A stretch of 64,000 nt of DNA, from assembly GCA_934533005.1 (NCBI GenBank), contig CAKTBC010000002.1, positions 3,702 through 67,701 of the forward strand, written 5' to 3'. Source of the stretch: an uncultured Oscillospiraceae bacterium (GTDB lineage: Bacteria > Bacillota > Clostridia > Oscillospirales > Oscillospiraceae). How positions within the stretch are numbered: position 1 is the stretch's first letter; each line of letters opens with the position of its first letter. Of this stretch, positions 46,873 to 62,772 are shown in pieces. Position numbers and translations under genes: made by a program. Under the pieces are notes generated by a model. The model searched no databases. It was given only the letters and a program-made list of their open reading frames with translations, and was not told the origin of the DNA.

Positions 46873-46884
46873 CTTAAAAAGCAA

Positions 46885-47043
46885 TATGCATACCACAGGG
46901 TCATGCGCGCGGCATGCCCCGAAAGTTCGTCGTCTCCTTCTCAAACACGGAAAGTCGTGCCGTTTCCGGCAGGGCTCTGTCCCGCTTGCGCGGGGACGGC
47001 CGCAGGCCATAGCTTTCGCCTTAGGCTGTACGGCTTGGAAACT
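46885..47043 (-). promoter_or_regulatory. Candidate molybdenum cofactor (Moco) riboswitch
   Basis: Minus-strand leader: TTCCAAGCC, then a hairpin carrying an 11-nt tetraloop-receptor motif (CCTAAG..GAAA..TATGG), a GCAA-capped hairpin, a GAAA-capped hairpin and GAGAAGGAG. It sits between a promoter and a terminator in front of moeA-moaA. Similarity to the Moco motif is recalled from memory, not computed. Confidence 0.5.
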
Positions 47044-47061
47044 TTTTGTTTTATGATATTT

Positions 47062-47090
47062 ATTATACAAGCCGTACCGGGCTCAGTCAA
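47062..47090 (-). promoter_or_regulatory. Sigma-A-type promoter of the Moco biosynthesis operon
   Basis: TTGACT - 17 nt - TATAAT on the minus strand. Confidence 0.65.
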
Positions 47091-47159: not shown

Positions 47160-47200
47160 AAAAAAGCCCCGGCAGCACGGGATTTCCGTGCATGCTGGGG
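47160..47200 (-). terminator. Rho-independent terminator ending the nine-gene molybdoenzyme operon
   Basis: Imperfect GC-rich stem ccccagcatgcacgg/ccgtgctgccgggg followed by T6 on the minus strand, 7 nt after the mobA stop. Confidence 0.7.
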
Positions 47201-47206
47201 TCTTTC

Positions 47207-47809
47207 TTATCTTTTCTCCTCGGAGGGATCGCCGAGCGCTTCCTGTTCAAGAAAGCGCGCATACGCCTCCGGCGTATTGAGGTTGGCAAGGATAACGTTC
47301 AGATCCCATTCTTTCAGGTCATCCTCGCTGAAATAGTGGACGTTCATCCGCTCAAACACGCTGCGGAAGGAGCGGCACTCGCTCTCGAGCGCTGCCTTCA
47401 CCTGCGGCAGACACCGCCGGTGGAACACACCGAACATCGGCTCGAGCCGCCCGTCAGCACGCCGGATGATGCTCGCGTCGTATTCCCCCAGCCCGTAATA
47501 CAGGGCGCGGGCCAGTTCGGGATCGCCGTTCGGCATATCGGTGGCGGTGAAAAACGCGGCATTCTCGTCTGTCTGGGTGAACGCGGAGTAGAGGCCGTTG
47601 AGCGGCCCCTTTCCCGGATACGCATCCGGGAGTTCCAGATAGCCGCCGCAGTCAAACCGCCCGGGACGATCCACGGAAAACGCCACAGGGCCGAGGCAGG
47701 CATAGCACTTTGCCAGCTTCAGACTCATCGTTTCGTTCCCCACCGGCAGAAGCGCCTTGTCGCGCCCCATGCGCCGGCTCTGTCCTCCGGTCAGAATGAC
47801 GGTCAGCAT
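47207..47809 (-). CDS. mobA: Molybdenum cofactor guanylyltransferase
   Basis: LTGGQSRRMGRDKALL N-terminal motif, GPLNGLYSA, and TDMP. ATG is 3 nt after the upstream stop. Confidence 0.88.
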   Translation of the reverse strand: MLTVILTGGQSRRMGRDKALLPVGNETMSLKLAKCYACLGPVAFSVDRPGRFDCGGYLELPDAYPGKGPLNGLYSAFTQTDENAAFFTATDMPNGDPELARALYYGLGEYDASIIRRADGRLEPMFGVFHRRCLPQVKAALESECRSFRSVFERMNVHYFSEDDLKEWDLNVILANLNTPEAYARFLEQEALGDPSEEKR

Positions 47810-47812
47810 TGC

Positions 47813-48799
47813 TTATCCCTCCATGACGAATCTCTGTCCGATACCCTTTTCGAGCGCGCGGCGGTACACAATCTCCGCGCAGTTCACGTCATGCGCGCCC
47901 ATGCCCATATGCGTGGAAACGATGATCTCGCTCTCCGACTCGCGGCCGGGGACCTTCCCGGTGAGAAGTTCCGTCATATCACCGAACACATAGTCGTTCT
48001 TCACGAATCCCGTGGGGTTCAGGTGCGGGCTGTTGATGATGTCCTGATCCGGGCGGCGGTAGCCGAGATACCACTTGTCTGCCGTCTTGCAGAGCGCCGG
48101 CTCGATATCCCGGAAGCCCTCGATACCAATGACGGTCGTGCCGGGCTTGACCATGTCGACCTTGAGCAGCGGCTCATGCGCGCCGGAGGCCATGAGGATC
48201 AGGCGGCTGTCTTCCACGGCCTGCGCGGGCGTATCGCAGATCACGACCTCGGCACGGCCTTCATATTGCTTGCGCACTTCCTCCATCGGCGCACGGCTGC
48301 GGTTATAGAGCCGCACCTGCCGGATGGACGGGAACTGCGTCAGGAAGCCGCGGATGCCGGCTCTCGCCTGCAGGCCGCATCCCATAACAGTGAGCACCTC
48401 GGGGTCGGGGTTCGTAAGGTGCTTTGCCTGCACGACGCCGTGCCCGCCTGCGGTGCGCATGGCGGTGATGCTCGTCCCACCGACCAGGGCGATCGGCGAG
48501 CCGGTGGTGGTGTCGCTCAGGAGAATGCTCGTGCCGTGGCAGAACGTATACCCCGGCAGCGGCGCGGAAAACGTGCTGATCCATTTCACACCGGCCACAT
48601 GCTTGAAGTGCAGCACCGCAGGCATGGAGTGGAAGTTATTCTTTCTTGTCTCGTCCGTGAACATCAGCGACATATTGCCGACGGTGATATCGCCGGTGCC
48701 GATGCGGTAAAAGGTCTCCTCCGCCGCGGCAATGGCGTCCTCCACCGAGAGGAGTTCCCGGACATTTTCTTCGCTCAGGAGCAGAAGCTCTTCATGCAT
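47813..48799 (-). CDS. Ornithine cyclodeaminase / mu-crystallin family protein
   Basis: Family layout: TAMRTAGGHGVVQAKHL, Rossmann VMGCGLQARAGI, and MVKPGTTVIGIEGF. Confidence 0.8.
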   Translation of the reverse strand: MHEELLLLSEENVRELLSVEDAIAAAEETFYRIGTGDITVGNMSLMFTDETRKNNFHSMPAVLHFKHVAGVKWISTFSAPLPGYTFCHGTSILLSDTTTGSPIALVGGTSITAMRTAGGHGVVQAKHLTNPDPEVLTVMGCGLQARAGIRGFLTQFPSIRQVRLYNRSRAPMEEVRKQYEGRAEVVICDTPAQAVEDSRLILMASGAHEPLLKVDMVKPGTTVIGIEGFRDIEPALCKTADKWYLGYRRPDQDIINSPHLNPTGFVKNDYVFGDMTELLTGKVPGRESESEIIVSTHMGMGAHDVNCAEIVYRRALEKGIGQRFVMEG

Positions 48800-48903
48800 G
48801 TTTTGTTCCTCCGATCCGAATGGGGATGGTGTGCTCTCTCCCCGAGGGGAGAGAGCACGGGGGTAAGAAGAAAGAGAGAGGATAGCTGACTATGTAAATT
48901 TTA

Positions 48904-49431
48904 TCAGCGCTTTTTGCGGAGATTAAGCTTATCGATCAGCACGTTGCAGGCTTTATCGCTGCCGCTGGCGATATATTCTTCCTCCGTTACGCAGTCCAGC
49001 GCGCCGAAGGAGCACGCACGAACACATGCGGGCTTCAGCCCGGCCTTTACGCGCTCGTTGCACCCATCGCACTTTTCCATTTTTCCGTCGGACTTGCGGT
49101 AGCGCGGCGCGCCGAACGGGCACGCCATCGCGCAGCTCTTGCAGCCGATGCAGTTGGTGTTGTCGTACACAGTGAAGCCCGTCTCCGGGTCCTTGCTGAT
49201 GCAGCCCACCGGGCATGCCGGGATGCAGGGCGCATCCACGCAGTGCATGCATGCCGTGGAGAGATACGCAAAATACGTGCTGCCGTCCGCAAGAGGTACT
49301 TCCGTGTCGAACGTCTGGCGGAAGCAGAGATCCCCGGCTTCGATGTCCGTGTCGTTCTGGTCGAGGCAGCCCATCATGCAGGCCGAGCAGGCGGAGCACT
49401 TGTTCTCGTCAAATACAAAAATGTGTTTCAT
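48904..49431 (-). CDS. 4Fe-4S dicluster-domain electron-transfer subunit (DmsB/PsrB/NrfC-like, four Cys groups)
   Basis: CSACSACMMGC, CMHCVDAPCIPACP, CIGCKSCAMACP, CDGCNERV...CVRAC. ATG is 1 nt after the catalytic-subunit stop. Confidence 0.88.
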   Translation of the reverse strand: MKHIFVFDENKCSACSACMMGCLDQNDTDIEAGDLCFRQTFDTEVPLADGSTYFAYLSTACMHCVDAPCIPACPVGCISKDPETGFTVYDNTNCIGCKSCAMACPFGAPRYRKSDGKMEKCDGCNERVKAGLKPACVRACSFGALDCVTEEEYIASGSDKACNVLIDKLNLRKKR

Positions 49432-49432
49432 A

Positions 49433-51583
49433 TCACTTGCCCTCCACTTTGCGGATGTTGCAGCGTAGGCCCTTGAACCCGGGGAAGCCGGAGTACGGGT
49501 CAACGTGGTTCTCGCCGACGAGCTCGTTGACGTTCGCCTCGGTGTAGCCATGGATGGCCAGCAGCACACCGGGCTTCGCAAGGGCGCTCACCTTGACGCG
49601 CATGCGGATCTCGCCGTGCGGACTGGACATGGCGACCCAGTCGCCGTTCTTAAGACCGAGACGCTTGGCATCCTCGTTGTGCACCTCCACGGTCGGGTCG
49701 GGCTGCAGCGAGCGCAGCCATGGCACCTCATGCGTGCGGGAGTGGAGCGCATGTGGGCGGCGCGCGCCGGTGCAGAGATAGAACGGGTATTTGGCTTTCG
49801 TTTCGGGATCGTTCTCATCGGAGAGCGGATCGGTATAGCTCGGCAGCGGATCGAGCCGCGGGTCGATCTGCGCGATGGTGTTCGAGTAGAATTCAAACTT
49901 GCCGGACGGGGTATTGAAGCCGTTGGCAAGCACTTTGCCCGCCTGCGCCGGCCACTTGGCGGTGGGCACCTTCACGGGCAGAGAGCTCTTCTTGAGGTCT
50001 GCCACGGTAAGGCCGCAGCCGTCGATGATCCAGTCGCAGCAGGCCTCGTAGCCCTGCTGCAGCAGATCGTCGTCGAGATTGAGAGCTTTTATCATGCCGT
50101 ACATGATATCGGTATCGGACTTGGAATCATACAGCGGCTCAATGACCGGCTGTGTGAACGTGAGGAAGCCGCCCTGATACGCCTTCATCTCCCCGCGCTC
50201 GAGCGACGAGCACGCGGGCAGGACAAGATCGGCGTACTTGGCCGACCATGTCATGAACATATCCGTGTCGACATAGAAGTCCAGGTTATCTGCCATAGCC
50301 TTGAGCAGGTGTTCCGACTGCGGCAGCATCTTGGCGTTCAGGCCGAAGGCAACCATGCCCTTGAGCGGATACGGCGTGCCTTCTTCGAGCTGACGAATGA
50401 GATCGACAGCCTGGAACTCATCATAGAGTGCGTTCCACAGCGGGAACTTCTCCGCACCGATGCGTTCGGGAGCGTCCTTCGGGTAGCGGTCCGAGCGGAA
50501 CTGATGCTCGCGCGTCGGGAATCCGGCGGGCTTGTGGATGTACGAGGCCGGGTTTGGCACGTTGCCGCCGGCGCGGTCAAAGTTGCCGGTCAGCGCTGAC
50601 AGGCACACGATGGCGCGGTGGGTGTTGAAGCCGTTGATGTGGTGCACGAGCGCAGACGAGGAGTGGTTCGTGCACGCCGGGCCGTTCGTGGCATAAAGCT
50701 TCGTGGCTTCGAAAATGAGATCCGGATCGAGACCGGTGATCTCCGCGACTTTTTCGAGCGGATACTGGTCGACGAGCTCTTTGTATTTATCAAAGCCGAA
50801 CGTGTACTTCTCGACGTACTCCTTATCCATCCAGCCGTTGTCGATGATAAGCTTGCCCATGCCGAGCGCGAGAGCGCCGTCCGTGCCGGGGTTGATCTTG
50901 AGGAAAATGTCTGCAAGGTTCTTCGTGGCAGGCGTATCGCGGATGTCGATGATGATGACCTTGCCGCCGCGCTTTTTGAGCGCCTGCACGCCGCCGACGG
51001 ACAGGTGGTTGGAGTAGTAGCCGTCATAGTTCCAGCCAAGGTATGTGCTGGCGTGCCCCATATCCGGGCCGGCGCTGGTACCGGCGGTCGTCTTATTGGC
51101 GAGCATCATGGACGTCATGCAGGTGCTGTCGTCAGTGGCAAAGTTCACGCTGCCGAACACGTGCGCCATGCGGTGCAGGATCGGGCGGTACCACTTGGCG
51201 TAGCCGCTGAAGAACATGACGGAGCTCGCGCCGTACTTTTCGCGGATCTTCAGCAGGTTCTCCGCGATCATGTCGAATGCTTCGTCCCAGCTGATGGGCT
51301 CAAACTTGCCCTCTCCGCGCTCGCCGACGCGCTTGAGCGGCGTCTTGAGGCGGTCGGCACGATACACGTAGTTTCGCAGCGCCGAGCCCTTCGTGCAGAG
51401 CTTGCCGCGGTTGAACGGATGCTCCGGCGTTCCTTCGATGCGGATGATCTTTCCGTCCTTTACATAGCAGTCCACGCCGCAGTGCAGGCCGGGGCTGCAG
51501 ATCGCGCACAGAGAGCGCTTTATTTCGATGCCGGTGTCCTCGCCCGGGATCTTGGCTTTTATTTTCTTTTCCAGTTCAGTCAA
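49433..51583 (-). CDS. Molybdopterin (bis-MGD) oxidoreductase catalytic subunit, DMSO-reductase superfamily, cytoplasmic
   Basis: 716 aa. N-terminal Fe-S Cys cluster CAICSPGLHCGVDC...KLCTKG, followed by MGD-binding domains and a C-terminal beta-barrel domain (VEVHNEDAKRLGLKNGDWV). No twin-arginine signal. TTG start 7 nt after AGGAGGG. Confidence 0.85.
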   Translation of the reverse strand: MTELEKKIKAKIPGEDTGIEIKRSLCAICSPGLHCGVDCYVKDGKIIRIEGTPEHPFNRGKLCTKGSALRNYVYRADRLKTPLKRVGERGEGKFEPISWDEAFDMIAENLLKIREKYGASSVMFFSGYAKWYRPILHRMAHVFGSVNFATDDSTCMTSMMLANKTTAGTSAGPDMGHASTYLGWNYDGYYSNHLSVGGVQALKKRGGKVIIIDIRDTPATKNLADIFLKINPGTDGALALGMGKLIIDNGWMDKEYVEKYTFGFDKYKELVDQYPLEKVAEITGLDPDLIFEATKLYATNGPACTNHSSSALVHHINGFNTHRAIVCLSALTGNFDRAGGNVPNPASYIHKPAGFPTREHQFRSDRYPKDAPERIGAEKFPLWNALYDEFQAVDLIRQLEEGTPYPLKGMVAFGLNAKMLPQSEHLLKAMADNLDFYVDTDMFMTWSAKYADLVLPACSSLERGEMKAYQGGFLTFTQPVIEPLYDSKSDTDIMYGMIKALNLDDDLLQQGYEACCDWIIDGCGLTVADLKKSSLPVKVPTAKWPAQAGKVLANGFNTPSGKFEFYSNTIAQIDPRLDPLPSYTDPLSDENDPETKAKYPFYLCTGARRPHALHSRTHEVPWLRSLQPDPTVEVHNEDAKRLGLKNGDWVAMSSPHGEIRMRVKVSALAKPGVLLAIHGYTEANVNELVGENHVDPYSGFPGFKGLRCNIRKVEGK

Positions 51584-52853
51584 GGTTCAGCCCTCCTAAG
51601 AATTTAATGAAGCTGTCTGGGAAGCCCCTCCACTTGAGATAGCAGACGGACTTGAGATCCAGACCCGCGTCCTTATTCTCTATCGCCTTTATAAACGCGC
51701 TTTTCAGTATGCCGTTGCTCTCGGCCGAGCCGATCACGTTCAGGCACTTGATCGCGTCCGCATCCCGGACGCCGCGGATATACAGGTGCTCATCCTCATA
51801 CTCATAGAGCTCATCCGTATCCTTACAGATGCTCACGTCGCCGATGCTGAAGAAATCGTAGTGCAGGTAATGCGCGAGACTCAGCGACACATTCGCGCCG
51901 AAGCGCGCATCGCCGCCGGTCATGCAGTTGCCCGCCACGCGCCCCTGCTGCATCGAGTTGAGCCAGAGCGCCAGATTCTTCACGGTGCGGTTTTGCGTTT
52001 CAAAGGCATCGCAGCAGTCGCCCGCGCCATAAATGCCGGGGTAATTCGACTCCATGTGCTCGTTGACGGTCACGCCCTTGCCGACAGCAATGTCCGTTCC
52101 CTTCAGGAACGCAAGATTTGGCCGCACGCCGCTCGTGACGGCGATAAGATCGGCCGTATACCGCTCGCCGGTGTTCGCCACCGCGACAAGCCGCCCGTCC
52201 TCCGAGCGCTCGATATGGTCGAGCGTCCGGCCGAACGCGAGATGCACGCCTTTCTTTTCGAGATCGGCCTGCACGCGCTCCGCCGTCTGCGGGAAGAGCG
52301 CTTTGGAGAATGCCTGACGGCTGCGGTTCATAAGAGTGCAGTCCACGCCCGCCTCCACGAAATCCTCCACGACCTTGATGCCGCTCCACGACGCGCCAAA
52401 CACGAGACCCGCGTGTACCTTTCCACTCGAGAGCGCTTCCTTGAGCTGCACGGCATCGTCCACGGTGCGCATGGTGAATACGCCCGGCAGCTCTGCCCCC
52501 TCGAGCTGCGGCTTTACCGCCGATGCGCCGGTGCTGATGAGAATGGCGTCGTACTGCGCCTCGCTCCCGTCCGACAGACGCACCGTCTTCGCCGCGGGGT
52601 CAAGTCCCGTGACCGGCGTGTGCGGATGTACGATCAGGTTCAGCTCATTTTTTACTTCCTCCAGAGAGCCGAACGGGAACAGGGCGTCATACGGGATCGT
52701 TCCCTTGACGTAATATGTTGTCAGCATCGGGTTGTACGGGCCGAAATCCGTGTCTGAATACACATGGATCTCCGCCTCTGCATCCCGCTGCCGGGCTTCC
52801 TTTGCCGCGCTGTACCCAGCGCCGCCGAAGCCGATGATAGCGATCTTCTTCAT
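51576..52853 (-). CDS. FAD-dependent pyridine nucleotide-disulfide-family oxidoreductase (no redox-active Cys seen)
   Basis: MKKIAIIGFGGAGYSAA (FAD GxGxxG), a second dinucleotide fold LVFGASWSGIKV, and YGAGDCC. The 3' end overlaps the Mo-subunit start by 8 nt. Confidence 0.85.
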   Translation of the reverse strand: MKKIAIIGFGGAGYSAAKEARQRDAEAEIHVYSDTDFGPYNPMLTTYYVKGTIPYDALFPFGSLEEVKNELNLIVHPHTPVTGLDPAAKTVRLSDGSEAQYDAILISTGASAVKPQLEGAELPGVFTMRTVDDAVQLKEALSSGKVHAGLVFGASWSGIKVVEDFVEAGVDCTLMNRSRQAFSKALFPQTAERVQADLEKKGVHLAFGRTLDHIERSEDGRLVAVANTGERYTADLIAVTSGVRPNLAFLKGTDIAVGKGVTVNEHMESNYPGIYGAGDCCDAFETQNRTVKNLALWLNSMQQGRVAGNCMTGGDARFGANVSLSLAHYLHYDFFSIGDVSICKDTDELYEYEDEHLYIRGVRDADAIKCLNVIGSAESNGILKSAFIKAIENKDAGLDLKSVCYLKWRGFPDSFIKFLGGLNLD

Positions 52854-52972
52854 ATTATCCTTAAATCCTCCCGTTGTAAAGGCCGGACAGACGATGCTTG
52901 CCGCGCCCGTCCGGGTCGTACCGAAAGCCAGGGATAAAGCAAATGCTGTATCCCTGGCTGCCGTATTTTGCG

Positions 52973-54445
52973 TTAGGAAAGCAGACTGCCGAGCGCGGCG
53001 ATGTCCTCGCAATTTTCAATGTTGCAGAGAACTTCGATCGCCTTCTCCAGCTTTTCGCCCTGCAGGACCGGTGCGGCCTGCACGCGGAACCGCTCCACAA
53101 ACTGCTCGCGCGTCATCATGTTCTTCGGATGACCCGGGTGAGCGTCCATAGACTTCTGGAACACTTCCCCGTTCTTCAGCTTGATCGTGACGGTCTTCAT
53201 CGGGTAGGAGCCGGTGCGGAACTGCTTGAAGCCGGTCAGCGGGGAATCCGTAGGAGACTCGCCGCCGTGGATGCGCTGCGCCAGAGCAAGCACCTTGGGG
53301 TTGACCATGTTTTCCTTCGTGAACCACTGCGCGCCCGGGTTGGGATCGTACAGCATGGCGGCCACGACGAACGGAATGGAGAACTGAGCGTGGGTCACGG
53401 AGGTGAAGCCCTCGGCAGGCGCCCACATACGCTCGGCGACCGGCGGATCAACGACGATCTCTTCCACGTCCTCGGGCCCGAAGCCATGCTCCTTGCGCAG
53501 ATCGGCGACGATCTCCGCGGTGGTCTGCACCCACATGTTGGCAGGCCAGTGCTTCATCAGGGTCTCCATCGTGAGATAGCGCGTGCCGAGATCCTTGGTG
53601 AGCCAGGAGATATCGGCCTCGCCGGAGACGACTCTCGTCTCGCCGCTGCCGTTGTTCGCGTCGTCACCGCAGATGACGCCGGTGTAGCAGCGGGGCTCGT
53701 CGAGCGCGTCGAGCTGGTTGTGGATGCCCTTCTCCACGGCCTTCGCGATCATGAAGCCGTCACGGGCGCGGTAGCCGTGCTCGTAGTGGTAGAAGTCGGA
53801 CATGGTGGTAGCGTGGTACGCCGTGGGCAGCGTGCTGCTCTCGCAGCCGACGCCGATGGCCTGGTTGACCTTGCGCGCATCGAAGCCGTAGAGCTTCGCA
53901 ATGGGGATGATGCAGCCGAAGATCTGCCAGCTCGTCAGGCCCCAGCCCTTCGTCTTCCAGCGAAGATCGGACGGCTGCACGGCCATCGCGATGCGCTGAT
54001 AGACCTCATAACCGGCGACGATGGCAGTGAGCAGGTCCTTGCCGCTCTTGTGCTTCTCTTCGGAAGCCAGCCACGCGCAGGGGATGATACCCGCGGAGGG
54101 GTGGCCCGTCCAGGAGCAATCTTCCCAGTCGAGGGAGTCGGACATGGTGCCGAGCGCGAGCGCGGCGTTCACGGGAGCGAGCTTCTCGCCCGTGCCCCAA
54201 ACGGTCGTCGGGCCGCCGATACCGCCGTTGGCCTCGCGGGACATTTCGCGCACCTTCTCGCTGATGGGGGTGTTGCGCGCAGCCAGCGTGACGCCGATGG
54301 TCTGGAGCATGATCATCTTGGCGCGCTCGATAACTTCGGCGGGGATATCCTCATACTTCAGGTTGACCGTATACTCGCTCAGTTCCTGCGTGTAGGTAGT
54401 CGGAGTGAGAAAATTATTATCCTTATGGAAACGATTGTATCGCAT
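52973..54445 (-). CDS. MmgE/PrpD-family protein, paralog 1
   Basis: YEDIPAEVIERAKMIMLQTIGVTLAA, LDWEDCSWTGHPSAGIIP, AIVAGYEVYQRIA. ATG follows AGGAGG. Confidence 0.8.
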   Translation of the reverse strand: MRYNRFHKDNNFLTPTTYTQELSEYTVNLKYEDIPAEVIERAKMIMLQTIGVTLAARNTPISEKVREMSREANGGIGGPTTVWGTGEKLAPVNAALALGTMSDSLDWEDCSWTGHPSAGIIPCAWLASEEKHKSGKDLLTAIVAGYEVYQRIAMAVQPSDLRWKTKGWGLTSWQIFGCIIPIAKLYGFDARKVNQAIGVGCESSTLPTAYHATTMSDFYHYEHGYRARDGFMIAKAVEKGIHNQLDALDEPRCYTGVICGDDANNGSGETRVVSGEADISWLTKDLGTRYLTMETLMKHWPANMWVQTTAEIVADLRKEHGFGPEDVEEIVVDPPVAERMWAPAEGFTSVTHAQFSIPFVVAAMLYDPNPGAQWFTKENMVNPKVLALAQRIHGGESPTDSPLTGFKQFRTGSYPMKTVTIKLKNGEVFQKSMDAHPGHPKNMMTREQFVERFRVQAAPVLQGEKLEKAIEVLCNIENCEDIAALGSLLS

Positions 54446-54501
54446 TTTGTACCTCCTACTTCATGATGTCATTCTGAACTCTTGTGCCTATGCACGCGAG
54501 A

Positions 54502-55881: not shown

Positions 55882-55923
55882 TATATTTCCTCCTTGCAGT
55901 TTTCAGTCGCCGCATGGCGATTT

Positions 55924-56640
55924 TCAAATGGTAAAGAGTTTCCCGAGATTGGGAAGCTTGTCGTTTACGCCGGAGTGGCGCAGGCACGCCCAGAGGCTGG
56001 CTTGATGGCTCGTGATGACCGGCATGCCGAGATCGTCCTCGAGCGCCGGGATGAGCTCCATCGTGCCGAGACCCATGCAGCTGAGGAAGAACACCTCCGC
56101 GCCGGTCGTATCCAGCTTCATCGCGTTGCGGTAAAGGTGCCGCTTGCTCGCGTGGCCGAACTCGCCGACCTTGTTGAAGCCGATGCCGGTGATGGACGTT
56201 ACCTCGATGCCGTTGTCCTCGAGGAACTTCTTCTCCGCCTGGTTCGTGTCCTCCGGGTACGGCGTCATGACGACGGTCTTCTTGAGACCGAGCGCTTCAA
56301 AGGCCTCGAGCACCGCAGTGCTCGTCGTAAGGCCGGGACAGCCGCTCGCCCGCTCGATGCGCTCGATGCATTCCTTGTCAAAGCCGTAGCCCTTGATGCA
56401 GCTGCCGGACGTGCAGCCGAAGAGAATGACGTCGTGCGGGCTCTTGCGGTACATCTTCGCCGCTTCCTCGAGCTGATCCGAGAGAAACACCAGTCCCTCC
56501 GGCGTCGGGCCGGGGAACCAGAGGCGGGTGCTGTCGAAGGACACGCCCTCCGGGGCGTATTTGTTGAAAGCATATTCGACCTTGTCGTCGATCGGCGCGA
56601 TCACGCCGATCCTTGCTCTCCAACCGTAGTAGTTTTCCAT
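55924..56640 (-). CDS. Asp/Glu/hydantoin racemase superfamily protein (maleate isomerase / arylmalonate decarboxylase-like), paralog 1
   Basis: YGWRARIGVIAP, a two-Cys pattern FGCTSGS and FLSCMGL, and PVITSHQA. Confidence 0.75.
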   Translation of the reverse strand: MENYYGWRARIGVIAPIDDKVEYAFNKYAPEGVSFDSTRLWFPGPTPEGLVFLSDQLEEAAKMYRKSPHDVILFGCTSGSCIKGYGFDKECIERIERASGCPGLTTSTAVLEAFEALGLKKTVVMTPYPEDTNQAEKKFLEDNGIEVTSITGIGFNKVGEFGHASKRHLYRNAMKLDTTGAEVFFLSCMGLGTMELIPALEDDLGMPVITSHQASLWACLRHSGVNDKLPNLGKLFTI

Positions 56641-56667
56641 GTTATCGACCCTTTCCTTTCGTGAAGT

Positions 56668-57390
56668 TTACAGGGTGAACAGCTTGCCGAGCTTCGGCAT
56701 CTTCGTGCCGATCCGGCAGTGCCGCAGCGCACTCCAGAGCGTCGCCTGATGACTGGTGATCACGGGGATGCCCATGTTCTTTTCCAGATCATCGATGATC
56801 TCCATCGTGGTCAGACCCATGCAGCTCAGGAAAAAGGTATCCGCACCCTTCAGATCCATGCGAGTGGCGTTCCGATACAGGAAAACCTCGTCCGCATCCT
56901 CAAAGCTCAGTCCGTCGGCGCGGCTGAACGGGCTCATGTCCATGCCGACGATGTTCGTCACTTCAAAGCCATTGTCCTCAAGGAATTTCTTCTCGGCCTC
57001 GTTCGTCGCCTCAGGATAGGGCGTGAGGACGGCCACCTTTTTGGTGCCCAGCGCACGGAGGCCTTCCAGCACGGCGGTGCTCGTCGTGAGGCCGGGGATA
57101 CCGGAGGCGCGCTCGATCTGGTTGATGCACTCCTGATCCCAGCCGACACCCTTGATGCAGCTGCCGGACGTGCAGCCAAACACCACGAGCTGGTACGGCA
57201 TGCCCTTATATTTGGCCGCCGTCTCTTCGAGCTGGTCGGTAAGAATGGTCAGTCCCTCGGGCGTCGGGCCGGGAAAGTTGATCTTCATGGATGCAAAGGA
57301 TACGCCTTCCGGCGCATAGAGGTGAAACGCGTGCTCGGCATTCTCGCTCATGGGAGTGATCAGGCCGATCTTTGCTCTCCAACCATACAT
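56668..57390 (-). CDS. Asp/Glu/hydantoin racemase superfamily protein (maleate isomerase-like), paralog 2
   Basis: YGWRAKIGLITP, FGCTSGS, FLSCMGL, PVITSHQA. Roughly 60% identical by eye to paralog 1. Confidence 0.75.
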   Translation of the reverse strand: MYGWRAKIGLITPMSENAEHAFHLYAPEGVSFASMKINFPGPTPEGLTILTDQLEETAAKYKGMPYQLVVFGCTSGSCIKGVGWDQECINQIERASGIPGLTTSTAVLEGLRALGTKKVAVLTPYPEATNEAEKKFLEDNGFEVTNIVGMDMSPFSRADGLSFEDADEVFLYRNATRMDLKGADTFFLSCMGLTTMEIIDDLEKNMGIPVITSHQATLWSALRHCRIGTKMPKLGKLFTL

Positions 57391-57844
57391 AAGCTTTGTT
57401 TCCTTTCTGGCGCATCGGTTTGCTTTTCGCAGCGCAATTAATAAAGGTGTAAGCGGCTTGCCGCGCGCCGGTCATTTTCGGATAGTGCAGGGGATATCTC
57501 CACCGCACATACCGCTCTCTTCGTCTCCTATTTTCGTCAAAGGACGGCGTAATGTCAAAGCGTAATGCTCCGTATCCCATATTTCGACGCTTCTGATATC
57601 CCATACCAAAAAACCTAATAGCCAAAGCGGTTGATTCCGGGGGACATCTGTTTTATGATGACGGCGGAATCCGGTAATCGGCCGCGCCGCTGTCCGGCGG
57701 CAGATCAGCAGGTTTCCGAACTTCTCCATTTGTCCGCAAGCCGTGCGTACCGCTCTCTTCAAATCCGCAGTCCACGACTTGACGGCAGAGAGGATAAAGG
57801 AGCTTCCCCGCAACAGGCTCCGCTCTGCATCCTGAGAAAAGAAA

Positions 57845-59350
57845 ATGAAAGGGATGTTCACTCAAATGGAAAAGATTTCTGCTTCCGTTCCCGCGAAGAG
57901 AAAGGGCTACACGCCCATGCAGTGGGTCCACATGGTCATCACGCTGGCGCTCATGTTCCTCTTCGGCTACCTTCCCCCGTTCGCGACCGTCACCCCGCTC
58001 GGCATGAAGCTGCTCGGCGTCTTCATCGGCGTCATTTACGGCTACTCCGCCTGCGGCGACATCATCTGGCCGTCTCTGTTCGCGATCATCGCGTTCGGCA
58101 TCAGCGGCTACTCCAGCATGGCGCAGGTCATCACCAACGGCCTCGGCCATAACGTCGTGTTCCAGAGCATCGTCGGCTTCGTGGCCGCCGGTTCCCTCTC
58201 CTACTACGGCTTCGGCAAGTGGTTCGTCCGCTGGTCTCTCTCCAAGCCCATCTTCAAGAAGAGCCCGATGCTCTATGTCTGGGCCTTCTTCGTGATCTTC
58301 GGTCTGTCCTGCGTCGTCGTCAACCAGATCGTCCTCTCCCTGATCCTCTACGGCATCTGGAACGACATCGCCGACAACTGCGGCTACGATGAGAAGAGCG
58401 GCTTCCGCTACGTCGGCTTCGGCGGCGTTATGCTCAGCACCGTGCTCGGCGGCGGCATGATCCCCTACCAGAGCTGGATGCTCGGCCTGGCGAACAATTG
58501 GTCCGCCTCTACCGGTACACAGCTGAACATGGGCGTCATGGCCTGCATCACTATCCCCACGACCGTCCTCATCATCACGGCTTACGTTTTCACCTCCAAG
58601 TGGCTATTCAAGATCGACTACAGCAAGATGCAGCGCTTCGATGAGACCAAGCTCGGCGAGGACAGCAAGGTCATGCGTCCCCGCGTCAAGCGCATCCTCA
58701 TCGTCTACTGCCTGACCGTTATCATCTGCATCCTCGGCAACACCCTCATCGGCTCCAAGCTCGCCACGCTCGTCAACCAGACCATCACGGTCGCCGGCTG
58801 CTACTGCATCTGCGCCGCCATCCTGCTCGTCCTTCCGAGCGGCGAAGGCGACGGACAGCCCTGCATCGTATTCAAGGAAGTCAAGAACACCGCCATCAGC
58901 TGGGAAGTCATTCTCATGTGCGCCGTGACGCTGCCGCTCTCGAGCGCCGTTACGAGCGAGGGCACCGGCGTTGTTCCCTGGATCAGCGGCGTGTTCGCCC
59001 CGATCTTCGCCGGAAAGGGTCCCGGCTTCATTCTTGTGTTCACGATCATCGTTTCCATGATCCTCACCAACCTCGGCTCGAACATCGCGTTCGGCTCGGC
59101 TCTGATCCCCATTATTGCTCCGTTCACCGTTGCCGCCGGCATGAACCCGACGCTCGCGGGCGCCGCTCTGATCTACATGGTCAACGTCGGCCTGATCCTC
59201 CCCGGCGCTTCCGCTCCTGCGGCCATCTTCCACTCCCAGCCGACGCTGCCCAACGGCGGCATGCGCATCAAGACGGCCTCGGTCGGCGCACTCTCTGTTC
59301 TTATTGTCGGCATCCCGGTGTTCCTGCTCATCAACCTGCTCGTCCACTGA
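57845..59350 (+). CDS. Ion-transporter-superfamily permease (CitMHS/DASS/ArsB-like anion transporter), substrate unknown
   Basis: 501 aa, about 12-14 TM segments with two-fold internal organisation. Divergent from the nine-gene operon. The exact start is uncertain (alternatives at 57854 and 57866). Confidence 0.6.
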   Translation: MKGMFTQMEKISASVPAKRKGYTPMQWVHMVITLALMFLFGYLPPFATVTPLGMKLLGVFIGVIYGYSACGDIIWPSLFAIIAFGISGYSSMAQVITNGLGHNVVFQSIVGFVAAGSLSYYGFGKWFVRWSLSKPIFKKSPMLYVWAFFVIFGLSCVVVNQIVLSLILYGIWNDIADNCGYDEKSGFRYVGFGGVMLSTVLGGGMIPYQSWMLGLANNWSASTGTQLNMGVMACITIPTTVLIITAYVFTSKWLFKIDYSKMQRFDETKLGEDSKVMRPRVKRILIVYCLTVIICILGNTLIGSKLATLVNQTITVAGCYCICAAILLVLPSGEGDGQPCIVFKEVKNTAISWEVILMCAVTLPLSSAVTSEGTGVVPWISGVFAPIFAGKGPGFILVFTIIVSMILTNLGSNIAFGSALIPIIAPFTVAAGMNPTLAGAALIYMVNVGLILPGASAPAAIFHSQPTLPNGGMRIKTASVGALSVLIVGIPVFLLINLLVH

Positions 59351-59429
59351 GTTTTTCGTATAGTCTCTAAACTCGTATAGTCACACAGTATCCCTCTCTT
59401 CCCTTCCTGCGCTGCCCAACTCCTGGCGA

Positions 59430-59472
59430 GGGGCTGAAAAAAACGGATCAAAACCCGGTTTCAGCCCCTTTC
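59430..59472 (+). terminator. Hairpin terminator after the permease gene
   Basis: Stem ggggctgaaa/tttcagcccc followed by ttt. Confidence 0.6.
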
Positions 59473-59514
59473 CGGCAGCAATGGATCGTGCTATAATGTA
59501 AAGGAGAATGTATT

Positions 59515-60585
59515 ATGGTTCGTAAAATTACCGTTATCGGCGCCGGTTCCACCGGCCACGCCGTTGCTTCCGTTATGTCCCAGCGCGGCTTTGAAGTCAC
59601 CTTCCACGACGACGAGCGCTTCGCTTCCCGCTTCCAGGATATTGAAGAGCTCGGCGGCATCACGCTGCGCGGCGGCATGCACGGCACGGGCAAGCCCGTG
59701 TGCATGACCACCGACCCCGAAAAGGCTGTCCGCGGAGCGGAAGTCATTTTCGTCCACGTCATGGCCGACCGCCACGAGGAGATTGCCCGCCGCATCGCCC
59801 CTTATGTGGAAGACGGCCAGCACATCCTCATCATCCCCGGCAACCTCGCCTCCTTCGTGTTCCGCAAGGTTTTCGACGAGATGGGCGTTACCGCCAAGGT
59901 CACCCTGACCGAGAAGGAAGGCAACTTCTGCCCCTGCCGTCTGACCGGCAAGGCCGAAGTCACGACCGGCATGCCTCTGAATCTCAAGGGCAAGGTTGCT
60001 TCCCTCCCCACCTCCGATACCGCGCGCGTGCTCAAGGATCTTGAGGGCGTCGTGGAATACACCGCCAACCGCAACGTCTTTGAAGGCGTCATCAACGCAG
60101 GCAACGTCATCAACCACATCGCGAGCACCGTTCTCTCCGCCGCGGAGATCGACCACAAGGGTCATGACTACTCCCTCTTCCAGTATGCCTTCACGCCGCG
60201 CGTTGTGCACTGCGTCGGCAAGATCCGCGAGGAGCGCAAGGCCGTTATCGAGGCCATGGGCATGACCGAGCACGGCAACCCGATGGGCATGATCGAAAAG
60301 GTGCAGCATCTCGACGAGCATCCCGAAGTTCACATCTTCTACAAGTACATGGACGGCCCCTTCGCGCTTGACCACCGCTATCTCCACGAGGACTGCGGCT
60401 GCGGCGGCGCGTTCGCCCTGTCCGTTGCGGAGCACCTCGGCATGGATATGCCGGTGCTGCGCTCCTTCCTCGGCGTAGCCGGAGCGATCAACGACCGCGA
60501 TTATATCCACGGCGGCCGCACGCTGGAGAATCTCGGCTTCCCGAAGGACATGCCGCTCGAAGAGATCTACAAGGCTATTGAATGA
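59515..60585 (+). CDS. NAD(P)-dependent octopine/nopaline (opine) dehydrogenase-family oxidoreductase
   Basis: N-terminal Rossmann KITVIGAGSTGHAVASVM. The central and C-terminal helical domain has NVINHIAS and DHRYLHEDCGCG motifs typical of the family. Own TGcTATAAT -10 box at about 59490. Confidence 0.7.
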   Translation: MVRKITVIGAGSTGHAVASVMSQRGFEVTFHDDERFASRFQDIEELGGITLRGGMHGTGKPVCMTTDPEKAVRGAEVIFVHVMADRHEEIARRIAPYVEDGQHILIIPGNLASFVFRKVFDEMGVTAKVTLTEKEGNFCPCRLTGKAEVTTGMPLNLKGKVASLPTSDTARVLKDLEGVVEYTANRNVFEGVINAGNVINHIASTVLSAAEIDHKGHDYSLFQYAFTPRVVHCVGKIREERKAVIEAMGMTEHGNPMGMIEKVQHLDEHPEVHIFYKYMDGPFALDHRYLHEDCGCGGAFALSVAEHLGMDMPVLRSFLGVAGAINDRDYIHGGRTLENLGFPKDMPLEEIYKAIE

Positions 60586-60645
60586 TCTTTAACAAAAGCT
60601 TTACGAAAAACCGCATATTTTCCCGAATTCCCGGTTAGAAGCACT

Positions 60646-60677
60646 ACAGGAGGAGTCGATTTTTCGACCCCTCCTGT
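60646..60677 (+). terminator. Hairpin terminator after the opine-dehydrogenase-like gene
   Basis: Stem acaggaggagtcga/tcgacccctcctgt (one mismatch). The T tract is weak. Confidence 0.5.
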
Positions 60678-60739
60678 TCGGCTATTTGAACGTAATCATT
60701 CTCATCGGAGAATAATAGAAAGAAAAGAGTGTGACGCTC

Positions 60740-61705
60740 ATGCAGTTGGAGTACTTCCCCTACATTCTGGAGATCGGCCGGCAGAAATCCGTTTCTGCCG
60801 CGGCGAAGGCTTTAAACCTTCGCCAGACGACGCTTAGCTCCATTCTCAGCTCGGTGGAAGAGGAGGTCGGCTTTTCCATTTTCTGCCGCACTCCGAACGG
60901 CATGGTGCCCACGATCCTCGGCGAGCAGTTTCTCGATGCGCTGCGCGACATCAACGTGCAGGCGGAGCTGCTCTACAGCCTTACGACACACGAGAGCGTT
61001 CATGCGCAGCCGGTGCATATCGTCGTCACGCCGGCGACCGGCGCGGGCGTTGCGCTCGAGCTTACACAGCGTTTTCACGCTTACGAGCTCAAATGCGATC
61101 TCTTTTTCGAGGAGCAGCCGCGTCCGGCGGCGCTGCCGATGATATTGCAGGGCAACGCAAATATCTGTCTTTTCTATGTCTCCGACAGTGAGATCAACGA
61201 GCTTCGGCAGGAGCTGGAGGAAAAGGGTCTGCATATCACGCCGCTGCTCGCTACGGAGTTCTGCGGCATCGTAACGCGCGACCATCCGCTCGCTAAGCTT
61301 GATGTGCTGCAAAAGGAGAATCTTTCCGCCTCCCCCATCATCACCGCCACCGGCTTTTTCTCCGGCGGCGCGCGCTTTGCCCGCTGGGCCTCGCAGCATT
61401 GCCAGATCACATCCGTTCCGAATTTCTATCTTCTCCGGTCGGTCATGGAGCAGGAAAACATGCTCGGCATCGGCACAGCTTTTACGTTTGCCGCCGCAAA
61501 GATCTACGATCCGGCGCGCCACAAGCTGCTTCACTTCTCCGAAGACCTTTTCTCTCCGCAGATGCACTATTGTCTTATACAGCGTGATGAATCCTATCTC
61601 CGATATCCGGAGAAGATCATGACCAACGAGATCCTGGACTATTTCCGCACGTTTTCCGCCGAGGAATACGGCGGACAGTTCATCGGCAAGGGGGAGGGCG
61701 CATGA
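60740..61705 (+). CDS. LysR-family transcriptional regulator 1
   Basis: MQLEYFPYILEIGRQKSVSAAAKALNLRQTTLSSILSSVEEEVG HTH plus a substrate-binding domain. A GTG at 60731 is an alternative start. Confidence 0.85.
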   Translation: MQLEYFPYILEIGRQKSVSAAAKALNLRQTTLSSILSSVEEEVGFSIFCRTPNGMVPTILGEQFLDALRDINVQAELLYSLTTHESVHAQPVHIVVTPATGAGVALELTQRFHAYELKCDLFFEEQPRPAALPMILQGNANICLFYVSDSEINELRQELEEKGLHITPLLATEFCGIVTRDHPLAKLDVLQKENLSASPIITATGFFSGGARFARWASQHCQITSVPNFYLLRSVMEQENMLGIGTAFTFAAAKIYDPARHKLLHFSEDLFSPQMHYCLIQRDESYLRYPEKIMTNEILDYFRTFSAEEYGGQFIGKGEGA

Positions 61706-62652
61706 GGCTCGAACATCTGCATTATCTGCTGTGCGTAGCACAGCATCACTCGATCTCCGCCGCCGCGCGCGAGCTTTTCATCAGCCAGACGGCTCTCTCC
61801 GCCATTGTGAACAAAACCGAGGACGAGCTCGGCTTCCCCGTTTTCGAGCGCGTGCGCGACGGTGTTGTCCCCACGGAGGAGGGCAAGGAGGTTCTCTCCA
61901 ATGCCTGGGACATTCTCTCGCGCTGGCAGGATGTCATTGCGCTGGGGACCGACGCCGAGAAGCGCCTGCTCCCGGTCAGCATTCTTGCCTCGCCGAGCGT
62001 TATGTGCGGTCTTACACTGCCGCTCACGCACTGGTATCAGGAAAAGGTGCCGCGCGGACAGCTCCGCTTTCACGAGGTCGTCGGCATGAAGGTCGGCTCG
62101 GAGATCGTACAGAGCAACTATAATATTGGCCTCACCTATTTCTCGCCGGACGGACTCGACGATTTTTCCTCCATGGCACAGAAATACCAGGTGCAGATCA
62201 CGCCGGTATACGACGATAAGCTCTATCTTATCGCGCGGCGCGATCACCCCATCTACCGGCAGAAAACCGTTGATATAATGTCGCTCACAAACGAGCGGTT
62301 CGCGATACTGCCGCAGTTTCTCTACAGCTACAGCCGCATCTTCTATTCGCAGAACATGGATCCGAGCAATCGCATCACGGTATACCCCAACGTCCCGCTT
62401 GTCAAAACGGCCGTGCTCCGCTGGAACGTCCTCGGCGTTATGAGCGGCTATGCCGCCACGCAGGATCACAGCGTGGAAAACGATGAGTTTTCGCTCGTAC
62501 CGCTTCCCGGTCAGGCGCGGGAAAATGGTCTGAAGCTCTATCTCATCCACCAGCGCCTCTCCAATCTGCACCAGAGCGAGAAAATCGCGCTCGAGTGCAT
62601 TCAGGAGTATTTCTCCTCCCTCCCCCCGCTCTCCGAGATCCTTCCGCAGTAG
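61702..62652 (+). CDS. LysR-family transcriptional regulator 2
   Basis: MRLEHLHYLLCVAQHHSISAAARELFISQTALSAIVNKTEDELG. ATGA overlap with the upstream LysR gene. Confidence 0.85.
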   Translation: MRLEHLHYLLCVAQHHSISAAARELFISQTALSAIVNKTEDELGFPVFERVRDGVVPTEEGKEVLSNAWDILSRWQDVIALGTDAEKRLLPVSILASPSVMCGLTLPLTHWYQEKVPRGQLRFHEVVGMKVGSEIVQSNYNIGLTYFSPDGLDDFSSMAQKYQVQITPVYDDKLYLIARRDHPIYRQKTVDIMSLTNERFAILPQFLYSYSRIFYSQNMDPSNRITVYPNVPLVKTAVLRWNVLGVMSGYAATQDHSVENDEFSLVPLPGQARENGLKLYLIHQRLSNLHQSEKIALECIQEYFSSLPPLSEILPQ

Positions 62653-62772
62653 ATCCCGGAGGAAGTCTGGTCAACCATAGCGTGCGCGTTCGGTTTTTCT
62701 TTACGCCCCGCAGGGACAATGCTATACTGCTTTCGTCGAGACATCTGCATTCGGAAACGAAGGGAGATTTTT

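Follow-up and report, generated by a model that had tools for sequence, protein, structure and literature searches.

Drugs, neurotransmitters and dietary polyphenols are all modified by molybdenum enzymes of gut bacteria. To our knowledge those that have been characterised come almost entirely from Actinobacteria and Proteobacteria and are membrane-linked respiratory enzymes. The subject of this work is a cluster of thirteen genes from an uncultured gut Oscillospiraceae bacterium (assembly GCA_934533005.1, contig CAKTBC010000002.1), analysed within a stretch of 64,000 nucleotides that we call the window. At its centre are genes for the catalytic subunit of a predicted bis(molybdopterin guanine dinucleotide) (bis-MGD) enzyme, referred to below as the Mo subunit, for an iron-sulfur (Fe-S) subunit and for a flavin adenine dinucleotide (FAD) flavoprotein, the three together forming the trio. 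Around them lie genes for two proteins resembling arylmalonate decarboxylase (Amdase-like a and b), two MmgE/PrpD proteins (PrpD a and b), an opine dehydrogenase, an ornithine cyclodeaminase (OCD) family protein, a permease, two LysR-type regulators and the cofactor enzyme MobA. The folds and cofactors are familiar; the combination of subunits, the pathway context and the substrate are new.

Several described molybdoenzymes share parts with the trio. In the polysulfide and thiosulfate reductases (PsrA or PhsA with a PsrB-type subunit), as here, a Cys-ligated bis-MGD subunit carrying the FS0 cluster is paired with a four-cluster ferredoxin-like partner; the enzyme here, however, has no twin-arginine translocation (Tat) signal and no PsrC/NrfD anchor, a soluble NAD(P)H flavoprotein replaces quinol, and the genes belong to an organic-acid operon. 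Acetylene hydratase of Pelobacter acetylenicus (PDB entry 2e7z) resembles the Mo subunit in size, in cytoplasmic location and in its aligned Cys ligand, but is a non-redox monomer, whereas the enzyme here has dedicated Fe-S and FAD partners. NasC/NasB and the NAD-linked formate dehydrogenases are also cytoplasmic bis-MGD enzymes wired to a pyridine-nucleotide flavoprotein, but the partners here are a DmsB-like four-cluster protein and a 425-residue Pyr_redox_2 protein. The catechol dehydroxylases of gut Actinobacteria (Dadh-type, in Eggerthella and Gordonibacter) are, like the present family, paralogue-rich gut bis-MGD reductases that act on organic molecules of diet or host. They are Tat-exported, membrane-associated respiratory enzymes, whereas the family here, compared by description, is predicted to be soluble and NAD(P)H-linked and occurs in Clostridia; uncharacterised Eggerthellaceae homologues are about 31-33% identical to the Mo subunit. 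The urolithin dehydroxylases of Enterocloster were rejected as relatives because they belong to the xanthine dehydrogenase family.

Two kinds of described pathway share accessory parts. In the iminodisuccinate (IDS) epimerase and methylsuccinate isomerase pathways a PrpD-family protein epimerises a 2-substituted succinate for a stereospecific downstream enzyme (PMC12290011), but those pathways have no molybdoenzyme, opine dehydrogenase or two-cysteine proteins, and similarity to the PrpD proteins of the window is low (E 1e-9 to 1e-13). The Bacillus subtilis yxe/scm operon is likewise transporter-linked and acts on a succinate conjugate (PMC9706529), and its ABC transporter and GNAT features are found in one sister-clade locus of the trio (L015). 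It relies, however, on a monooxygenase that needs O2 or on a class I lyase, without any Mo enzyme, and the similarity of the window PrpD proteins is weak (7bra, 1e-10 at best). Full-text literature searches covering the Mo, PrpD, AMDase and PatB families, the gut taxa and the candidate substrates turned up nothing on either the trio or the cluster, and a 2024 review of gut Mo and Fe-S enzymes gave no match for 'acetylene hydratase' or 'cytoplasmic' and no account of a soluble NAD(P)H-linked enzyme of this type. A preliminary description of the locus, made from the DNA letters, had been unable to map the gene set onto any characterised pathway, and this stands: we found no published pathway, and the set forms a coherent conserved unit.

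The molybdenum subunit and its redox partners

The Mo subunit has the domains of the dimethyl sulfoxide (DMSO) reductase superfamily (PF00384, 116 bits; PF01568, 87.7 bits; and the N-terminal Fe4S4 domain PF04879, 55 bits) and falls outside the curated families, reaching no NCBIfam cut-off in the profile search. It scores 302 bits against the formate dehydrogenase model Fdh-alpha (TIGR01591; cut-off 666), 275 bits against PhsA (cut-off 694), 255 bits against DmsA/YnfE (cut-off 778) and 204 bits against NasC (cut-off 1100). Its best matches in the PDB are acetylene hydratase 2e7z (1e-70) and then the polysulfide/thiosulfate reductase PsrA 2vpw (4e-64). Searching with a profile of the family instead of the single protein gives acetylene hydratase (349 bits), the F420- and H2-dependent formate dehydrogenases and PsrA all within 312-349 bits, and scores so nearly equal place the family about equally far from all of these. 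Database annotation of its members is generic only ('molybdopterin-containing oxidoreductase family protein').

Residues, scores and gene context allow the described enzymes to be set aside. The FS0 cysteines (C26, C29, C35 and C63) and Cys155 are invariant in 12 members of the family, and Cys155 aligns with the metal ligand Cys141 of acetylene hydratase and with the selenocysteine (Sec) of formate dehydrogenase. The catalytic Asp13 of acetylene hydratase, which follows the second FS0 cysteine, is replaced by Ser30, and this replacement, with the translational coupling to the Fe-S and FAD genes, rules out acetylene hydratase. The residue after Cys155 is Met or Phe, and the absence of the Sec/Cys-His pair, together with the low score, rules out formate dehydrogenase, as the score alone does for NasC. 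The protein begins MTELEKKIKAKIPGEDTG... and has no twin-arginine motif, and no gene for a membrane anchor of the NrfD/PsrC type was found in any version of the locus examined; with the PhsA score, these features rule out Psr/Phs. Judged from its N-terminus the Mo subunit is cytoplasmic, as the preliminary description had said, and the clade check puts it outside formate dehydrogenase, NasC, Phs/Psr and DMSO reductase.

The flavoprotein has an N-terminal GFGGAG motif and no cysteine near position 43, where coenzyme A disulfide reductase and NADH oxidase (CoADR/Nox) carry their redox cysteine, which points to an electron-transfer reductase. Among the NCBIfam models it matches PadH best (171 bits; cut-off 475), the subunit that reduces NAD in phenylglyoxylate dehydrogenase. 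Where its second dinucleotide fold ends, in ...TLMNRSR, an acidic residue is missing, a hint of NADPH as the coenzyme. In the Fe-S subunit, 16 cysteines fall into four groups of ferredoxin type (TIGR02951, 125 bits; cut-off 214), and the flavoprotein stop overlaps the Mo start by 8 nt. Since no version of the locus supplies a membrane anchor, the simplest reading of the trio is a soluble NAD(P)H-linked enzyme in which electrons would pass from NAD(P)H to FAD, through four [4Fe-4S] clusters and FS0, to Mo. The coupling of a molybdenum redox step to NAD(P)H, proposed earlier for this locus, fits that architecture. Such an enzyme would resemble a Psr/Phs-type reductase moved to the cytoplasm and fed by pyridine nucleotide, with wiring reminiscent of NasBC or the NAD-linked formate dehydrogenases.

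Conserved linkage and sister clades

The thirteen-gene cluster is not a chance juxtaposition, as the same set recurs in metagenome contigs and in several genera. An identical Mo protein is encoded on 17 gut metagenome contigs, with unchanged gene order in all six of those listed. A database search returned 2,978 proteins at E <= 1e-30 for the Mo subunit; the best 120, all at least 66% identical, include proteins of Oscillibacter sp. PC13, Dysosmobacter, Flavonifractor spp. An306 and An135, Pseudoflavonifractor phocaeensis and Enterocloster asparagiformis. Several clusters of Mo proteins at 90% identity each gather hundreds of sequences or contigs, which makes the locus a common one in gut samples, and relatives were found in rumen, chicken and human gut. 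Abundant gut Clostridia (Oscillibacter, Dysosmobacter, Flavonifractor, Pseudoflavonifractor, Enterocloster and Lacrimispora) thus appear to carry a design other than the membrane-linked respiratory one, namely a soluble, NAD(P)H-fed bis-MGD enzyme placed in catabolic operons and present as several paralogues per genome.

The linkage survives rearrangement. In Flavonifractor (Mo 72% identical) the whole set is present, including both LysR genes, and is followed by genes for synthesis of the molybdenum cofactor (Moco). In the locus of a 55%-identical Mo protein, whose sequence cluster includes Lacrimispora sp. 210928-DFI.3.58, the blocks are shuffled, with the permease, then two Amdase-like and two PrpD genes, then two LysR genes and the opine dehydrogenase, and finally Mo, Fe-S and FAD, and this change of order and orientation implies that the linkage is functional and not merely inherited synteny. 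Wherever the contig is long enough, PrpD and opine-dehydrogenase homologues adjoin every Mo homologue of at least 54% identity and Amdase-like genes adjoin most (tblastn over 97 loci), a set that includes Pseudoflavonifractor sp. 524-17 and a Lachnospiraceae bacterium from goat omasum (rumen). The PrpD, isomerase-like and opine-dehydrogenase genes are therefore conserved neighbours across genera, in agreement with the preliminary description, which had treated them as one system with the Mo enzyme. Neither of the two outcomes that it had named as grounds for giving up the idea was seen.

E. asparagiformis has a reduced version (Mo 68%) consisting of a CdaR-type regulator, one PrpD, an opine dehydrogenase, a permease, FAD, Mo and Fe-S. 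Between it and the window, identity is 68% for Mo and 52% for the permease, against 37% for PrpD and 30% for the opine dehydrogenase. That the Mo subunit and the permease are so much better kept suggests that the Mo enzyme may see the imported compound itself, and we read the contrast as tailoring steps that have drifted while transporter and Mo enzyme probably continue to see the same or a very similar molecule. The OCD and MobA genes occur only in Oscillospiraceae versions and the Amdase-like genes are absent from E. asparagiformis; all three lie outside the universal core. Annotated plasmid relatives were also sought, yielding homologues of 23-29% identity in uninformative contexts. The exception, on Cytobacillus firmus plasmid p1 (L098; NZ_CP107028.1, 289792-293950), has a CdaR-type regulator, a sodium:solute symporter and an opine-dehydrogenase-family gene; its CdaR-type 'sugar diacid recognition' regulator echoes the regulator of the E. 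asparagiformis version.

Further from the window the trio keeps other company. Among 1.8 billion cluster representatives, relatives of the Mo subunit form a series of 55, 47, 47, 45, 43, 44, 44, 42, 42 and 41% identity, followed by a continuum near 35%; taking one genome per species, the FAD and Fe-S genes adjoin that of the Mo subunit until identity falls to about 41%, and beyond this point they have mostly disappeared. In the zone of 41-50% identity the partners of the trio differ. The commonest set, in Lacrimispora, Anaerotruncus, Pseudoflavonifractor and others, comprises a GntR/FCD regulator, a class I/II 'aminotransferase', an APC amino-acid permease and an EamA exporter, while other sets variously contain enolase-superfamily (galactonate-dehydratase-like) proteins, D-2-hydroxyacid dehydrogenases, carboxylate transporters of the TRAP or DASS type, or ABC systems of the polar-amino-acid or OpuAC type. 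In three of three loci tested, in sister clades of 41-47% identity, the 'aminotransferase' passes the cut-off for the C-S lyase PatB (391-465 bits; cut-off 340), and the PatB-type neighbour cluster was found in seven loci with Mo identities of 43-48% (L013, L015, L023, L028, L029, L033 and L037). The PatB-linked trios are probably a separate system acting on cysteine S-conjugates, their oxides or persulfides; the pairing of a PatB C-S lyase with an amino-acid transporter is absent from the window and from all loci of at least 54% Mo identity. In a sheep-rumen Oscillospiraceae locus the gene for a 41%-identical Mo subunit is immediately followed by one for a three-domain Rhodanese-TusA-DsrE sulfur-carrier fusion (L045, 7213-8265, plus strand), accompanied by an enolase-superfamily protein and an amino-acid ABC transporter, and in another rumen locus, L031, a MetK gene lies nearby.

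PrpD genes turn up again next to the trio in two further sub-clades, L030 and L034. P. phocaeensis has at least three paralogous trios (Mo 72%, 48% and 47% identical; L026, L030 and P0081/P0087) in differing contexts, of which L030 has PrpD, Amdase-like and opine-dehydrogenase genes of its own. The trio thus behaves like a portable reductase module that may have been recruited into varied uptake-and-tailoring operons, and at the level of the whole trio family the association with carboxylates, with amino acids and, in several clades, with sulfur chemistry is clear. Two variants of the subunits were noted. An 834-residue fusion (L025, 7483-9987, plus strand) has the trio flavoprotein as its C-terminal half and an N-terminal part of about 400 residues with no assignment, and in P0123 and P0126 the Mo subunits have 857 and 841 residues, with a C-terminal extension of about 150 residues.

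Accessory enzymes and the putative pathway

The two Amdase-like paralogues are 63% identical, and both carry the cysteines of the FGC76TSGS and LSC188MGL motifs. Their best PDB match is an engineered racemase variant of arylmalonate decarboxylase (AMDase G74C), followed by maleate isomerases, and they score 111-117 bits against the AMDase model (cut-off 225); a match to EutA is likewise under its cut-off. True arylmalonate decarboxylase has a single catalytic cysteine, Cys188, with Gly74 where racemases have their second. The presence of cysteine at both positions in both paralogues rules out a true decarboxylase and would make the pair two-base enzymes of racemase or isomerase type. Ectoine utilisation, raised by the EutA- and EutC-like matches, was rejected as well, these being far under their cut-offs and EutB, EutD and EutE genes absent.

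Both PrpD proteins find cis-aconitate decarboxylase (CAD) as their best PDB match and iminodisuccinate epimerase 2hp0 next. In a low-identity alignment with CAD (E 5e-23), whose active-site residues we take to be Asp93, Thr97, His103 and His159 (human numbering), the equivalents of Asp93 and His103 are kept, Thr97 is replaced by Cys and His159 by Gly or Trp. PrpD b is closer than PrpD a to the single E. asparagiformis protein (37% and 31% identity). According to a 2025 study, the characterised members of the family all use enolate chemistry on a 2-substituted succinate, and two of their four known activities are epimerisations (PMC12290011); one member, from an itaconate cluster, is a methylsuccinate isomerase (PMC12290011).

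The opine dehydrogenase matches N-(1-D-carboxyethyl)-L-norvaline dehydrogenase (CENDH; PDB 1bg6) at 8.5e-31, and its His201, Arg288 and Asp293 align with the His and RYFFED of that enzyme and the RYLTED of octopine dehydrogenase; the His and the Arg/Asp pair of the R-Y-x-x-E-D motif are the catalytic residues of opine dehydrogenases. Biosynthesis of an opine-type metallophore was rejected, since no nicotianamine-synthase-like gene is present and the layout with permease and LysR is typical of catabolism. The OCD protein is closest in the PDB to pyrroline-2-carboxylate (Pyr2C) reductase 6t3e and SbnB 4m54, and among the equivalogs SbnB, archaeal AlaDH, BhcD, EutC and LhpI its best score is 140 bits, for SbnB, against a cut-off of 327. 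The permease belongs to a small family (138 homologues found), some members of which match PF03600 (CitMHS) and which NCBI names 'SLC13 family permease' or 'Di- and tricarboxylate transporter'. The LysR gene pair is also present in the compared loci L009, L011 and L042.

Taking these enzymes together, we regard it as an evenly balanced proposition that these gut Clostridia have here a substrate-inducible catabolic locus under the control of LysR, with a soluble three-subunit molybdoenzyme of an uncharacterised family at its heart. What we infer from the gene set, in the following scheme, is which way the electrons flow, the class of substrate and the order of steps. The SLC13/CitMHS-like permease would import a di- or tricarboxylate; the CdaR-type 'sugar diacid' regulator of the E. 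asparagiformis version also speaks for the scheme. Electrons from NAD(P)H, having passed the FAD subunit, the four [4Fe-4S] clusters and FS0, would arrive at a Cys-ligated Mo-bis-MGD centre, which would carry out a two-electron reduction, stripping one atom of O or S from the compound taken up or from an intermediate formed early on, and such NAD(P)H-driven reduction could serve fermenters as an electron sink. The two PrpD and two two-cysteine proteins would act through enolates on the skeleton of a 2-substituted succinate, by epimerisation, beta-elimination or decarboxylation, and the opine dehydrogenase, of the core, and the accessory OCD protein would interconvert a secondary amine and an imine with NAD(P), leading to C-N cleavage that would yield ordinary amino and oxo acids. 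The operon's MobA and the adjoining riboswitch-controlled Moco operon would supply the cofactor. The likeliest class of substrate appears to be an N- or S-linked polycarboxylate of 2-substituted succinate type, of dietary or host origin; we would hold any single named substrate with much less confidence than the scheme as a whole.

Several points weigh against this catabolic scheme. Enzymes of bis-MGD type can also run oxidatively. The absence of OCD, MobA and Amdase-like genes from some versions means that these are not essential to the core reaction, and the loss of some CAD-conserved residues from the PrpD paralogues means that family precedents may not transfer. The sister clades of the trio, moreover, indicate sulfur amino-acid chemistry, which is not obviously reflected in the accessory genes of the window. 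The preliminary description had proposed a catabolic route for an imino/amino or unsaturated polycarboxylate; of this, the coherent conserved unit stands, whereas no result singles out that substrate class, for which there are family precedents only, and the PatB C-S lyases and sulfur-carrier proteins beside sister clades add an organosulfur reading.

The organosulfur reading would make the substrate an S-linked succinate conjugate or an S-oxide (for example, a fumarate Michael adduct of S-(2-succino)cysteine type), with the Mo enzyme reducing a sulfoxide or cleaving an S-S or C-S bond while the PrpD and two-cysteine proteins epimerise, or eliminate from, the succinyl stereoisomers. The nearest reductase relatives are indeed polysulfide and thiosulfate reductases, and the PatB lyase beside sister-clade trios, the sulfurtransferase-type fusion of L045 and the MetK gene of L031 point the same way. 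YxeQ is a PrpD-family protein. It is encoded in the B. subtilis S-(2-succino)cysteine operon, where its role is unexplained (PMC9706529). The cluster of the window, however, has no C-S lyase, sulfurtransferase or sulfite/sulfide-handling gene, its opine dehydrogenase and OCD protein indicate nitrogen chemistry, and substrates can differ between paralogues at 45% identity; we consider the organosulfur reading improbable. With a substrate that is instead an unsaturated tricarboxylate, plant trans-aconitate would be isomerised by the maleate-isomerase-like proteins and converted by a CAD-like PrpD to itaconate, which after reduction to methylsuccinate would be epimerised by the second PrpD. This would account for the PDB matches of both PrpD paralogues to CAD, for the resemblance of the two-cysteine proteins to maleate isomerase, for the di/tricarboxylate type of the permease and for relatives in rumen, chicken and human gut, and the PrpD-family methylsuccinate isomerase supplies a precedent (PMC12290011). 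It calls, however, for reduction of a C=C bond, a flavoenzyme reaction, and it leaves the core opine dehydrogenase and the OCD protein without a role; the replacement of CAD His159 in the PrpD paralogues also tells against it. We know of no bis-MGD enzyme that reduces a C=C bond, flavoenzymes being the ones that do so, and we think the aconitate route distinctly improbable.

The electron path is in principle reversible, and the Mo enzyme might accordingly work as a hydroxylase or dehydrogenase that uses water and delivers electrons, by way of Fe-S and FAD, to NAD(P)+ while acting on a low-potential substrate such as an N-heterocyclic dicarboxylate of dipicolinate or quinolinate type, with a cyclic imine then handed to the OCD protein and the opine dehydrogenase. 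OCD-family enzymes do act on cyclic 2-carboxy imines, and the opine motif HOOC-CH-NH-CH-COOH is also present in piperidine-2,6-dicarboxylate; the sole dipicolinate pathway found in our literature search is O2-dependent (PMC11472048). Known N-heterocycle hydroxylases, however, are of the xanthine dehydrogenase family with molybdopterin cytosine dinucleotide (MCD) and not bis-MGD, the cluster has no ring-cleaving amidohydrolase, and the support is purely by analogy; an oxidative enzyme would seem to have little probability. In a last reading the trio would reduce sulfur, polysulfide, thiosulfate, selenate or nitrate as a sink for NAD(P)H and would be only loosely tied to the carboxylate genes. 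Similarity to Psr/Phs, formate dehydrogenase and Nas, and the variety of neighbour sets in which the trio is found, would agree with this. Against it, the Mo subunit attains none of the curated cut-offs, the accessory genes remain linked despite rearrangement across genera, the operon shows translational coupling (the 8-nt overlap and a 1-nt gap), and one genome contains at least three divergent trios with a separate transporter for each, which speaks for organic substrates that differ between them. An inorganic acceptor is, to our minds, very improbable.

Returning to the catabolic scheme, a wider form of it can be proposed tentatively, as a doubtful idea. The Mo family would comprise unrecognised soluble, NAD(P)H-driven Mo-bis-MGD reductases that have diversified into numerous paralogues in Clostridia of gut and rumen, every one of them wired to a transporter and tailoring enzymes of its own. 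The window member would open an O2-independent route for N- or S-linked succinate conjugates (succinated amino acids, or opine- or iminodisuccinate-like compounds, arising from gut fumarate), and in its sisters the reduction of cysteine S-conjugate oxides or of persulfides would precede the step of the PatB lyase. If this is true, the family parallels, in the cytoplasm, the arsenals of respiratory reductases that Eggerthellaceae possess. The substrate, once found, would reveal a metabolic activity new to the gut and a means for fermenters to dispose of electrons, would give functions to orphan branches of the PrpD, two-cysteine Amdase-like, bacterial opine dehydrogenase and OCD families, and would provide annotation pipelines with a first anchor for the Mo family.

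Layout, control regions and cofactor supply

An open reading frame map combined with profile searches recovered all thirteen genes of the preliminary description, with the positions, order and families it had given. Nine of them form a minus-strand operon running from 57390 to 47207, with Amdase-like a first and mobA last (Table 1). The gaps in order are 27, 42, 56 and 119 nt, the 8-nt FAD/Mo overlap, 1 nt (Mo/Fe-S), 104 and 3 nt, so the range of up to 119 nt with overlaps noted earlier was reproduced. That description had further called the operon terminator-bounded, which is the least secure part of its observations. A hairpin 3' of mobA is present, but it is weak, and a scan of the region gave 12 terminator-like sites against 13.5 expected from shuffles; with no enrichment over expectation, the hairpin is not strong evidence for an operon end.

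Table 1. Positions of the genes and other features discussed, in window coordinates.
Feature	Position	Strand	Basis or remark
Amdase/Asp-Glu-racemase-superfamily protein a (240 aa), two-cysteine type	56668-57390	-	PF17645 118 bits
Amdase/Asp-Glu-racemase-superfamily protein b (238 aa)	55924-56640	-	profile match; two-cysteine motifs
MmgE/PrpD a (459 aa)	54502-55881	-	PF03972 and PF19305
MmgE/PrpD b (490 aa)	52973-54445	-	N- and C-terminal PrpD Pfam models
Pyr_redox_2 FAD/NAD(P)H flavoprotein (425 aa as called in metagenomes)	51576-52853	-	PF07992 154 bits
bis-MGD molybdo(tungsto)pterin catalytic subunit (716 aa, TTG start)	49433-51583	-	three Pfam domains
Four-cluster [4Fe-4S] electron-transfer subunit (175 aa), DmsB/PsrB-like	48904-49431	-	PF13247
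OCD/mu-crystallin family protein (328 aa), NAD(P)-dependent imine reductase/dehydrogenase type	47813-48799	-	PF02423 151 bits
MobA-like molybdenum cofactor guanylyltransferase (200 aa)	47207-47809	-	PF12804
Weak terminator-like hairpin 3' of mobA	47167-47182	-	5-bp stem, then T run
Divergent control region (454 nt)	57391-57844		promoter-like sites 57530-57558 (-) and 57631-57659 (+)
TATCCCATA repeats	57573-57581 and 57597-57605	+	24 nt start to start
SLC13/CitMHS-like permease (about 494-501 aa)	57845-59350	+	weak, sub-threshold DctM match
Opine dehydrogenase family enzyme (356 aa), CENDH-like	59515-60585	+	PF02317 69 bits
LysR-type regulator 1 (324 aa)	60731-61705	+	profile search
LysR-type regulator 2 (316 aa)	61702-62652	+	profile search; 4-nt overlap with regulator 1
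Moco riboswitch RF01055, full-length	46918-47052	-	63.6 bits; gathering score 36; E 2e-13
Promoter-like site flanking the Moco leader	47062-47090
Terminator-like site flanking the Moco leader	46850-46875
MoeA-MoaA-MobB/MoaC operon	42758-46814
MobB-MoaC fusion (323 aa) and MoCF_biosynth protein (303 aa)	42758-44643	-	in the Moco operon
Possible carbamoyl-transfer cluster	31627-37697	+
Cytidine/deoxycytidylate-deaminase-family gene (162 aa)	62719-63207	+	just past LysR 2

In the divergent control region the sequence TATCCCATA occurs twice, between the two divergent promoter-like sites. The two copies are the sole occurrences in the window, where 0.08 would be expected by chance, and they are kept in contigs of the same species (L001-L003 and L005) and not in other genera. 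The pair is a candidate operator for one of the two LysR regulators; a search of the divergent promoter region for inverted repeats gave nothing convincing.

Mo (or W) bis-MGD is the predicted cofactor of the catalytic subunit, with indirect support from the MobA-like gene of the operon and from the Moco operon beside it. The leader that the preliminary description had called riboswitch-like proved to be a true Moco riboswitch, directly upstream of moeA and heading the Moco operon. The best NCBIfam matches of the MobA-like protein are all MobA models, each scoring under its cut-off. Moco biosynthesis genes have been found to set the Flavonifractor group An4/An10/An82/An306 apart from F. plautii (PMC7710108), which fits an accessory island. 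The Moco operon also shows a fusion of MobB and MoaC, and its 303-residue MoCF_biosynth protein has a C-terminal half with only a faint match to MoaE (in metagenome gene calls). Flavonifractor encodes MobB and MoaC separately, and its mobA closes the Moco operon instead of belonging to the catabolic one.

Two further observations concern other parts of the window. A plus-strand group of genes encodes a Na+/H+-antiporter-family permease, an aspartate/ornithine-carbamoyltransferase-like protein, a carbamate-kinase-like amino-acid kinase, an APH-family phosphotransferase and an amidohydrolase, and looks like a carbamoyl-transfer, ATP-yielding catabolic cluster for a ureido or carbamoyl compound. 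The deaminase-family gene that follows the second LysR regulator is probably unrelated to the cluster.

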